Assembly: GCF_044222565.1 (NCBI RefSeq)
Contig: NZ_JBGANA010000033.1
Coordinates: 5,923-69,922, forward strand
From: Prosthecobacter sp.
GTDB taxonomy: Bacteria > Verrucomicrobiota > Verrucomicrobiia > Verrucomicrobiales > Verrucomicrobiaceae
DNA length: 64,000 nucleotides
Direction of reading: 5' to 3'
Part shown: piece after piece, positions 34,031-35,953 of the stretch
Layout of the letters: every line of letters starts with the position of its first letter
Numbering within the stretch: the first letter of the stretch is position 1
The notes under the pieces: model-generated
Told to the model about the DNA's origin: nothing
Seen by the model: the letters and a program-made list of their open reading frames with translations, nothing else
Databases searched by the model: none
Translations under genes and position numbers: made by a program

Positions 34031-34505
34031 CTACTCCAGCTCTGCATTATCATTCACCGGCACGCTGACTGCCTTTCACCTGCTCCCAGGCCTTCAAACC
34101 GCCCTGCGCCTGCTGCACTCCATGCCAGGTCTCATGCGGCAGGTGCTCTTTCTGACCCGGAGCAAGGAGAATGTCGCTTTCCTGCGCATAATTCTACTTT
34201 GGTAACTCTTCAGGACGTTCATAAAAGTCATCAGGAGATTTCCACCCTCAGCCTCAGGCATCCGTGTCAATCCGTGTTATCCGTGGTCAAACATTCTGGA
34301 AGAATCAGGTCTGATCAGGCCCATATTAGGACTTACCAAAGTAGAAATAAGCTTCGGCGTTGAGTTCCTCAGATTTGGCGGAGTTGTAGTGCACTTTCAC
34401 GCCATCGAGCGAAAGACCCGATAGCGCCTCAACGCCGGCCTTGAGTTCGTCGGACAGACCGGTGTGCCTCGGCACATGAGTAATCGGGAGTTTTTCTGGC
34501 TGCAC
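34031..34505 (-). pseudogene. DUF4157 (eCIS core domain, HExxH) pseudogene split by a MITE, also frameshifted and carrying a premature stop
   Basis: Not in the ORF track. 5' half: PVQPEK...HTGLSDELKAGVEALSGLSLDGVKVHYNSAKSEELNAEA. After removing the insert it resumes in frame: YAQESDILLAPGQKEHLPHETWHGVQQAQG; shifted frame VPVNDNAELE*. Matches the remembered DUF4157 consensus TGLPD.LK.G.E.LSG.S...V.VHYNS..PAQL.A.AYAQG.DIH.APGQE.HLPHEAWHVVQQ. Confidence 0.85.
34192..34346. mobile_element. 155-bp MITE / internally deleted IS
   Basis: Perfect 14-bp terminal inverted repeats TTCTACTTTGGTAA (34192-34205) / TTACCAAAGTAGAA (34333-34346); ATAA direct repeats on both sides (34188-34191, 34347-34350); excision restores the GAA GCT TAT GCG CAG reading frame. 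Confidence 0.88.
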
Positions 34506-34606
34506 GGGTAGGCAGAATATGTCTAGAAACGGATGAGTGCCCCCCCCTCCTCAAGAAAACTCATGCGTCGCAAAACGCATCTGCCCGATGATTTTCACCC
34601 CATGCA

Positions 34607-35428
34607 TCAACCCGCACGTCCATCCTTCTCCAGTTCGAGCTTCAGACCGAAGCAGACGTCTTCAAGGCGGATCACACGTGGCCCACGTTCGATGGCTTTG
34701 AGCACGCTGTAGCGCACCGCGTTCACAATTTGGCCGCCGGTTACTTCATACTCACGCGCCAGATACTCGAGTTGCACAGCAGGCTCCAGTTCGAGGGGCG
34801 GGGTGAAGGCTCGTTCCCACAACCGACGGCGCAGGGTGCGGTCTGGCGGTGCAAAGTGAATGCAGCTTTGGAGGCGGCGCAAAAAGACGGAGTCGATATT
34901 TGCTGAGGAATGGGCCGCGAGAATCACCACGCCGGGGTAGGCCTCGATCCGTTGCAGAAGGAAGGACGTTTCCAGGTTCGCGTAGCGCTCATTCGCCTGT
35001 TCGGTATGCGTACGACGGCCAAACAGAGCATCGGCTTTGTCAAAATAGAGGATCCAGTTCTTGTCCGCGGCCTGATTAAAAACGTCGGCCAGATTTTTCG
35101 CGGTCTCGTCTAGGTACTTGGAAATCACCTGCGGAAGATCCACGCGGTACACGTCCATTCCCTGAGATTGCCCCAGCAGGCAAGCTGTCATTGTCTTGCC
35201 GGTCCCGGGTGGGCCGTGAAAGAATGCTTTGTACCCTGGCGAAGTCCGCTGGCCTAAGTTCCACTCGCCCAGCAGCGCGCGGCCATGCCTCATCCATAAG
35301 TTGACCTCCTGTACCTGCATCATCACATCCGGCGCCAGGATGAGATCATCCCAGGTCAAACACGAAGTGATGCGCTTGGCCGGAAAGTGGGCGCTGAGGT
35401 CCGGCTTAAGAGTGCTTTTGGTTTTCAT
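34607..35428 (-). CDS. AAA+ ATPase of the eCIS/T6SS-iii (Afp15/Pvc15-like) class, ATPase domain only, degenerate motifs
   Basis: FPAKRITSCLTWDDLIL, PGYKAFFHGPPGTGKT (Walker A), VYRVDLPQVISKYLDETAKNL, ILYFDKADALFGRRT, RYANLETSFLLQRIE, TGGQIVNA. Confidence 0.85.
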   Translation of the reverse strand: MKTKSTLKPDLSAHFPAKRITSCLTWDDLILAPDVMMQVQEVNLWMRHGRALLGEWNLGQRTSPGYKAFFHGPPGTGKTMTACLLGQSQGMDVYRVDLPQVISKYLDETAKNLADVFNQAADKNWILYFDKADALFGRRTHTEQANERYANLETSFLLQRIEAYPGVVILAAHSSANIDSVFLRRLQSCIHFAPPDRTLRRRLWERAFTPPLELEPAVQLEYLAREYEVTGGQIVNAVRYSVLKAIERGPRVIRLEDVCFGLKLELEKDGRAG

Positions 35429-35440
35429 CGAGATCGAGTT

Positions 35441-35953
35441 TCAGACCCAGTCAACATAAAGCGGATCAGGCATCCACAGTGGCTTTATCACGCCAAAGCT
35501 CCACGGAATCGTGGACATGAGCACATCAAAGCCACGATGCTCAATCGAGATCGTCCAGCGCTCCTTCCCTCGGGTGAGTTTGCCACGCCGCCAGAGGAAG
35601 GAGCCGCGAAAGCCGTCAGGAGAGAGATTGCCCGCGGTCGGCCAGTTCTGAATGGCACTGCGCAGCAGCATCTGCGTGTGCGTACGATCCTGCTCACCCA
35701 AACCGTTCTCACGTGCCACCGGAGTGTCGGGCGTAAGTCCGCAGAGCACTTTGTTCAGCACCAGCGACTGCTCGGGCACCGCAGTCTCCTCGGTCAGCAA
35801 AGCATGGATCAGATGTACCCCACACGCAGCCGCCGTTTGATCGCGAAAGCGCCCGTTTTCGAGCAACCCGTGTTTTTCATGCAGCCGGGCAAAGTAGGGC
35901 GAGAGGATCACCAGCCCTGCATTCTCAACGTCGTATGAGTCTCCCATCATCAT
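35441..35953 (-). CDS. Contractile injection system tape-measure-like protein, C-terminal domain only
   Basis: ENAGLVILSPYF, LVLNKVLCGL, LLRSAIQNW..AGNLSPDGFRGSFLWRRGKL, FDVLMSTIPWSFGVIK.LWMPDPLYVDW match the remembered CIS_TMP C-terminal signature; in-frame TAG just upstream. Confidence 0.8.
   Translation of the reverse strand: MMMGDSYDVENAGLVILSPYFARLHEKHGLLENGRFRDQTAAACGVHLIHALLTEETAVPEQSLVLNKVLCGLTPDTPVARENGLGEQDRTHTQMLLRSAIQNWPTAGNLSPDGFRGSFLWRRGKLTRGKERWTISIEHRGFDVLMSTIPWSFGVIKPLWMPDPLYVDWV

Follow-up and report, generated by a model that had tools for sequence, protein, structure and literature searches.

We analysed a stretch of 64,000 nts from a Prosthecobacter sp. (contig NZ_JBGANA010000033.1, positions 5,923 to 69,922; hereafter the window), which carries between the housekeeping genes infC and rpe three consecutive pieces related to extracellular contractile injection systems (eCIS): the C-terminal domain of a tape-measure protein (C-domain), a truncated AAA+ ATPase and a broken gene of the DUF4157/eCIS_core family. 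This trio is very probably the decaying 3′-terminal remnant of a Verrucomicrobial eCIS operon, a relic without a working system. Judged by its sequence, the locus fits the remnant of a known system, of which it would be a new but degraded member, and a compact new system would not be present here. The genome holds two non-adjacent eCIS scraps and is short of at least ten essential genes. An earlier note on this DNA had offered two readings, a decayed eCIS fragment or a satellite module acting in trans. The first is supported by the truncations, a transposon insertion, small indels and the missing partner machine, all described below. As a correction to the idea of a minimal cassette, also raised there, a run of three eCIS marker domains that lacks structural genes does not amount to a new minimal system at this locus; such a trio is what stays after the erosion of a large operon gained by horizontal transfer.

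The three genes downstream of infC

The three co-oriented pieces reported in the earlier note directly after the infC terminator were all found, on the minus strand. The first, a 170-amino-acid (aa) open reading frame (ORF) at 35441-35953, matched the PF19268 (CIS_TMP) profile with E 2.3e-57 and 195.7 bits (curated cut-off 27.8 bits), over profile positions 299-463 of 463. By tblastn, its product was 65–81% identical to the last 170 residues of the full-length tape measures of three complete eCIS loci, L035-L037, and its start, MMMGDSY, pairs with an internal ..PPMMPGDSY.. of the 1246-aa L035 tape measure. Because the match is C-terminal and the start aligns to an internal segment, we identify the protein by homology as the last ~14–18% of a 959-1246-aa eCIS tape measure, predicted to be translated from internal Met codons. 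The N-terminal region and the long central ruler that characterize a full-length tape measure are both lacking. An AlphaFold model of the domain gave a compact alpha/beta fold with a predicted local distance difference test score (pLDDT) of 92.8 and a predicted template-modelling score (pTM) of 0.89; in the PDB no relative was detected by sequence and none was significant by Foldseek (best TM-score ~0.2). The C-domain looks like the only member of the trio that still resembles an undamaged protein in this genome.

The second piece, a 273-aa ORF (34607-35428, minus strand), follows after 13 nt. It matched PF00004 (AAA) with E 4e-20 and its Walker A (GPPGTGKT) is intact. Intact relatives of this ATPase measure 451–463 aa, and the copy found in a sister species, G014, is full-length (463 aa). 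Compared with G014, 571 bp are replaced by 10 bp in the window, a net in-frame loss of 561 bp or 187 codons which takes out the N-domain present in G014 and in all other homologs. Walker B reads FDKAD instead of FDEAD (E131K), and the sensor-1 Asn is changed to His in both relic ATPases, of the window (AAH vs ATN) and of G014. Aligned with 13 homologs from several phyla, the window copy has 13 substitutions of its own at columns where all the others agree, including that of Walker B and those in SKYLDETAKNL (SKYIGETEKNL in the family); the corresponding count is 6 for G014 and 0, 0 and 1 for the copies of complete loci. Thus, among the hallmarks of an eCIS ATPase, the AAA module and Walker A are present, while the Walker B DE, the sensor-1 Asn and the N-domain are not. 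In the case of Pvc15, cargo loading needs every domain and the Walker B Glu (E555) is the hydrolytic residue (PMC11495950). The window ATPase resembles Pvc15/Afp15 in its classic-clade AAA domain, its intact Walker A and its position directly after the tape-measure gene, but differs in lacking the N-terminal domain and in carrying Lys for the Walker B Glu and His for the sensor-1 Asn. It is thus truncated and predicted to be catalytically degenerate.

The third gene lies within the ~600 bp without a long ORF which separate the ATPase from the 3′ end of rpe. The earlier note had recognized it outside the ORF list, and it proved real but broken. Positions 33990-34505 read ...HTGLSDELKAGVEALSGLSLDGVKVHYNSAKSEELNAEA-Y, then a 155-bp insert, then YAQESDILLAPGQKEHLPHETWHGVQQ..., then stops. 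The 5′ piece (34351-34505, minus strand) was delimited by DNA alignment to the intact G014 ortholog, and the 3′ piece (33990-34187, minus strand), which carries HETWH as its HExxH motif, by reading of the sequence together with the same alignment. Both pieces are ~75–80% identical in DNA to the uninterrupted ortholog, which occupies the same place in G014. In addition to the 155-bp insert, the window gene shows one +4 and one -4 indel relative to G014, with in-frame stops after the shift. Neither piece alone (~34351-34505 and ~34053-34190) matched PF13699, because they are too short on their own, whereas the G014 ortholog matched this eCIS_core profile with 40.4 bits and E 3.3e-10 (cut-off 22). 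It is through this match of the intact ortholog that we assign the third gene as a pseudogene of the DUF4157/eCIS_core family. The domain assignments of the earlier note were therefore recovered by direct profile matches for CIS_TMP and AAA, and only by way of the sister species for DUF4157.

The insert in this pseudogene (34192-34346, no strand assigned) has the features of a miniature inverted-repeat transposable element (MITE): it is short and non-coding (no ORF), has perfect 14-nt terminal inverted repeats, TTCTACTTTGGTAA, and is bordered by a TTAT target duplication (34347-34350 and 34188-34191) where the empty G014 site has a single TTAT. Six full copies are dispersed in the genome, with 4-bp duplications TTAA, CTAA or TTAT. 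The five others (C33:108214-108369, C9:26909-27063, C11:234751-234906, C25:13152-13306 and C42:34628-34780) are 82–98% identical, and the copy in the DUF4157 gene is 97–98% identical to three of them. This near-identity suggests that the insertion into the DUF4157 gene was recent. We tentatively place the element with the bacterial MITEs derived from IS5-like elements, with their 4-bp YTAR-type target duplication; the TTAT of the window departs by one base from this consensus. Its CACGGAT-rich core (~55 nt) is also the unit of long tandem arrays in the genome (C5:74030-75544 and C22:161579-162125), one with a period of 101 bp, 15 copies and 93% match, another with a period of 97 bp and 5.6 copies.

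Two minor features were noted between the ATPase and the pseudogene, both on the minus strand. A consensus scan gave a terminator-like hairpin 3′ of the ATPase (34563-34580). A G8 homopolymer (34545-34552) separates the frame of the DUF4157 remnant from an upstream ATG; with one more G the two would be joined, which in a pseudogene is probably incidental.

Complete parent loci and the rest of the machine

The complete eCIS loci used as reference belong to related Verrucomicrobia: L035 (‘Verrucomicrobia bacterium 12-59-8’), L036 and L037/L038. The nearest full-length relatives of the ATPase, 75–85% identical to the G014 copy, sit in these loci. They consist of two convergent operons. The first contains PAAR, gp25, a 1213-1408-aa protein, a 611-702-aa protein, the tape measure (959–1246 aa) and the ATPase (451–459 aa); the second contains Pvc16_N, a 362-aa protein, the sheath, two tubes, DUF5908, CIS_tube, VgrG and two more genes. 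Systems of this Afp/PVC type have been surveyed by Geller et al. 2021 (PMC8213781), and DUF4157 is an established eCIS core domain, typically located near the operon 3′ end and associated with toxins (PMC8213781). The window trio resembles the Verrucomicrobial systems in its tape-measure C-terminus, in its AAA module (66–74% identity) and in the retained order of tape measure then ATPase. It differs from them in how little is kept, namely ~170 C-terminal aa of the tape measure and ~270 C-terminal aa of an ATPase of ~455 aa when intact, and in that the baseplate, spike, tube and sheath genes are all absent at the locus and mostly absent from the genome.

Tape measures of a single Verrucomicrobial eCIS lineage range in size from 282 to 1246 aa (L042 7456-8304, L040 8056-9513, L036 7079-9958 and L035 6248-9988). 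Their N- and C-terminal regions are conserved while the middle varies in length, a spread which would predict very different tail lengths.

As the earlier note had reported, no sheath, tube, baseplate or spike gene was found in the 64-kb window. We then considered the whole assembly (8.15 Mb, 44 contigs, 99.5% complete). The window ORF was its only CIS_TMP match; PF13699 gave none in a six-frame search, and GPW_gp25 (PF04965) and Baseplate_J (PF04865) gave zero matches. When every protein of the three complete loci (L035-L037) was used as tblastn query against this genome, only four gave a match: the tape measure (last 170 aa), the ATPase (C-terminal 266–271 residues), the sheath (76–85% identical) and the first tube (88–92%). 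No match was obtained for PAAR, gp25, VgrG, CIS_tube, the second tube or the large baseplate proteins. The genes for sheath and tube are found on another contig (C9:36942-40461), in a cluster of four open frames: Pvc16_N (170 aa), a 214-aa ORF, the sheath (531 aa) and one tube (155 aa). The cluster goes no further than this first tube, the next gene being hipA, and it holds the only sheath and tube matches of the genome. The genome-wide search for Afp/Pvc structural genes proposed in the earlier note thus recovered this scrap, but no baseplate or spike gene. What a functional eCIS requires is missing accordingly: sheath, tube and tail terminator (DUF4255/Pvc16_N) in the window, baseplate and spike in the genome. 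Without baseplate, spike and complete tail genes, the module is unable to build an injection particle, to load one or to serve one.

Another congener, G021, carries the same sheath–tube pair (L032, G021:C223, 7497-9604; sheath 76% identical), ending in unrelated oxidoreductases. G021 has no tape-measure fragment and G014 has no sheath.

A shared insertion and the record of selection

Among 36 congeners and 24 more distant relatives, a homolog of the C-domain was found only in G014, in the order infC, terminator, C-domain, ATPase, DUF4157 and rpe. In the window, infC (36051-37052, minus strand; 96% identical to that of G014) ends in an intrinsic terminator with a 13-pair stem and a T-run (36000-36029, minus strand), and the inserted fragment begins ~45 nt downstream; its right boundary is the convergent rpe (33079-33774, plus strand). 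From the terminator into the C-domain, the window and G014 can be aligned base for base, which indicates that the tape measure was truncated before the two species parted. Among the other congeners, 13 have rpe directly after the infC terminator, whose hairpin is kept at these empty sites; the 2-2.5-kb fragment is hence an insertion specific to the species pair. The trio shared by the two genomes is read as the trace of a single insertion event. What has happened since differs between them: G014 has a full ATPase and an intact DUF4157 gene but a frameshift in the C-domain, and the window shows the reverse pattern.

G014 also gave a gp25 match, which we rejected as a sign of an eCIS since it belongs to a type VI secretion system (T6SS; TssB/C, Hcp, TssE/F/G and a ClpV-like protein). 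This cluster lies at L121 (G014:C36:246000-265999); the window genome shows no gp25/TssE match at all. A sheath of the present eCIS lineage was not found in G014.

A scan of the region upstream of the trio revealed no sigma-70-like promoter. Since the trio stands behind a strong terminator without a recognizable promoter, any expression would depend on read-through.

We measured the ratio of nonsynonymous to synonymous substitution (dN/dS) between the window and G014. Pairwise values were 0.29 for both the C-domain and the ATPase, compared with 0.04 for infC, 0.075 for rpe and 0.07 for tadA among the flanking genes, with comparable dS for trio and flanks (0.33–0.69). When changes were allotted to branches by parsimony with L035 as outgroup, the window branch gave 0.32 (C-domain) and 0.39 (ATPase) and the G014 branch 0.26 and 0.20 respectively, all four significantly below 1 (p from 0.002 to 3e-6). 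Between copies of complete loci, the ratio was 0.05–0.10 for the ATPase and 0.21–0.28 for the C-domain. As estimated from these ratios, constraint is clearly relaxed on the ATPase and not measurably relaxed on the C-domain, and neither gene evolved neutrally over the whole branch.

The dead DUF4157 gene served as control. Its two pieces, analysed separately against the intact G014 ortholog, gave 0.21 and 0.25. Since a dead gene yields a ratio well below 1, a low dN/dS is compatible with a gene that is dead today and records past selection rather than present function. It shows only that most of the divergence arose while selection still acted on the gene. That the MITE is nearly identical to its sister copies agrees with this control in pointing to recent decay. 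The earlier note had named neutral evolution as the mark of simple decay; this was half borne out, as the ratios of 0.2–0.4 are not 1, but the equal value of the dead gene means that the test does not discriminate. The locus is a worked example of the limits of dN/dS for inferring function: one gene, visibly wrecked by a transposon, has a ratio (~0.2) equal to that of its neighbours with open frames.

A simple history would account for these observations. The source would be a Verrucomicrobial eCIS, more exactly the 3′ end of its operon for baseplate, tape measure and ATPase. A fragment of it, which begins midway in the tape-measure gene and also covers the ATPase and a small DUF4157 gene, would have ended up in the short infC-rpe spacer in the common ancestor of this species and G014. 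Purifying selection apparently held for much of the time since the species split. During that time a complete eCIS may have been present beside the trio, and the scrap on contig C9 may be what is left of it. Decay would now proceed independently in each species, having here killed the DUF4157 gene and deprived the ATPase of its N-domain and its Walker B Glu.

Alternative readings and orphan C-domains

Several points weigh against a mere relic. The C-domain and ATPase frames are still open, as the earlier note had observed, and their window-branch ratios are low (0.32, p = 0.002, and 0.39, p = 2e-5, respectively); that of the C-domain is no higher than between the tape measures of complete loci. 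The C-domain also retains almost all family-invariant residues, the sole departures being two Leu-to-Ile changes. Moreover, a 2-kb fragment without function that lasts across a dS of ~0.5 is long-lived for bacterial junk DNA. Verrucomicrobial promoters may escape a sigma-70 scan, and with 44 contigs a region missing from the assembly is formally possible.

One rival reading is an exapted stand-alone function, in which the C-domain, perhaps together with an ATPase remnant that binds ATP through its intact Walker A without hydrolysing it, would be made and selected today. We consider this unlikely. Both open frames, the conserved residues and the compact predicted fold of the C-domain argue for it, as do intact orphan C-domain ORFs in other genomes (L041, L018, L033, L074, L088 and L024). 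Yet the dead DUF4157 gene of the same module gives an equal dN/dS, the C-domain of G014 is frameshifted, the PAAR/VgrG partner is absent from the genome by tblastn and the scan detected no promoter. The orphan ORFs, several of which are intact elsewhere at 170–200 aa, also need caution: the search targeted C-domains, so their apparent survival is partly a matter of ascertainment. Across the 80 best loci from species-representative genomes, the open frame that contains the C-domain had a median length of ~1175 aa and only ~6 were short.

A search limited to short relatives of the C-domain returned 22 proteins in heterogeneous contexts, none of which repeated the trio of C-domain, ATPase and DUF4157. 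P0006 (L022) and P0011 (L026), candidates for independent minimal cassettes with an ATPase, were rejected as pieces of full tape measures in normal operons, because tblastn revealed homology to the tape-measure N-terminus and baseplate genes just upstream. P0010 sits in a fragmented eCIS locus. Solitary C-domains were observed beside a KefB-like gene in another Prosthecobacter (L041) and in Sphingomonas (L024). Two Verrucomicrobial metagenome contigs, L018 (9614-14075) and L033 (573-2929), carry a reduced module in which the C-domain faces a convergent fusion gene. This gene joins in frame two proteins of the complete loci, the N-terminus of the one of ~830 aa and the one of ~300 aa. PAAR stands before the C-domain and VgrG before the fusion gene in L018, while L033 is too short upstream to tell for PAAR; the two fusion proteins are 35% identical, which suggests that the reduced form is old. 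Finally, two Lewinella metagenome-assembled genomes (L074 4678-10510 and L088 2777-6846) hold a compact set of sheath, tube(s), VgrG, PAAR and a short C-domain of 176–186 aa, with no homolog of the ATPase, gp25 or baseplate within the flanks examined. The survey proposed in the earlier note hence gave no recurrence: the trio was seen only in this genome and in G014, as one shared insertion, and the other short CIS_TMP ORFs were gene-calling fragments or different remnants.

From such orphans one could imagine, as a speculative idea to which we give little credit, that the C-domain is an autonomous module repeatedly kept stand-alone after loss of the system, and that the trio long worked tail-less before it decayed. 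The C-domain is predicted as a compact fold without solved structural relative and lies in several loci directly after PAAR and near VgrG remnants; its orphans in several lineages offer a small lead on how the tape measure docks to the spike.

A satellite acting in trans, in which an eCIS encoded at another place in the same cell would draw its C-domain, loader ATPase and DUF4157 functions from the trio, appears very improbable. The open frames of the Pvc16_N-sheath-tube fragment on contig C9 speak in its favour, and past purifying selection on all three genes fits former work beside a complete ancestral eCIS. However, in that fragment hipA already follows the first tube, and gp25, Baseplate_J, PAAR, VgrG, CIS_tube, a second tube and the large baseplate proteins are absent from the genome, so that this 99.5%-complete genome leaves the trio nothing to serve. 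Besides, the DUF4157 gene is disrupted, both the N-domain and the catalytic Glu are gone from the ATPase, and G014 has no sheath of this lineage, its sole gp25 match being that of the T6SS. That truncations and insert reflect mis-assembly or sequencing errors in a normal eCIS locus is scarcely credible: the genome is a 44-contig draft, but the same truncated junction occurs in the independent genome G014, the 64-kb window is one unbroken stretch in which housekeeping genes flank the trio, the MITE shows a clean target duplication and recurs in five other places, and the site is empty in 13 congeners. The decaying remnant is therefore the reading that we retain.

A last observation concerns the upstream neighbour. 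IF3 encoded by infC (36051-37052) is unusually long, with 333 aa from the listed start. It bears an N-terminal extension rich in Pro, Gly and Arg and a C-terminal tail rich in His and Asp, and G014 has kept the two.

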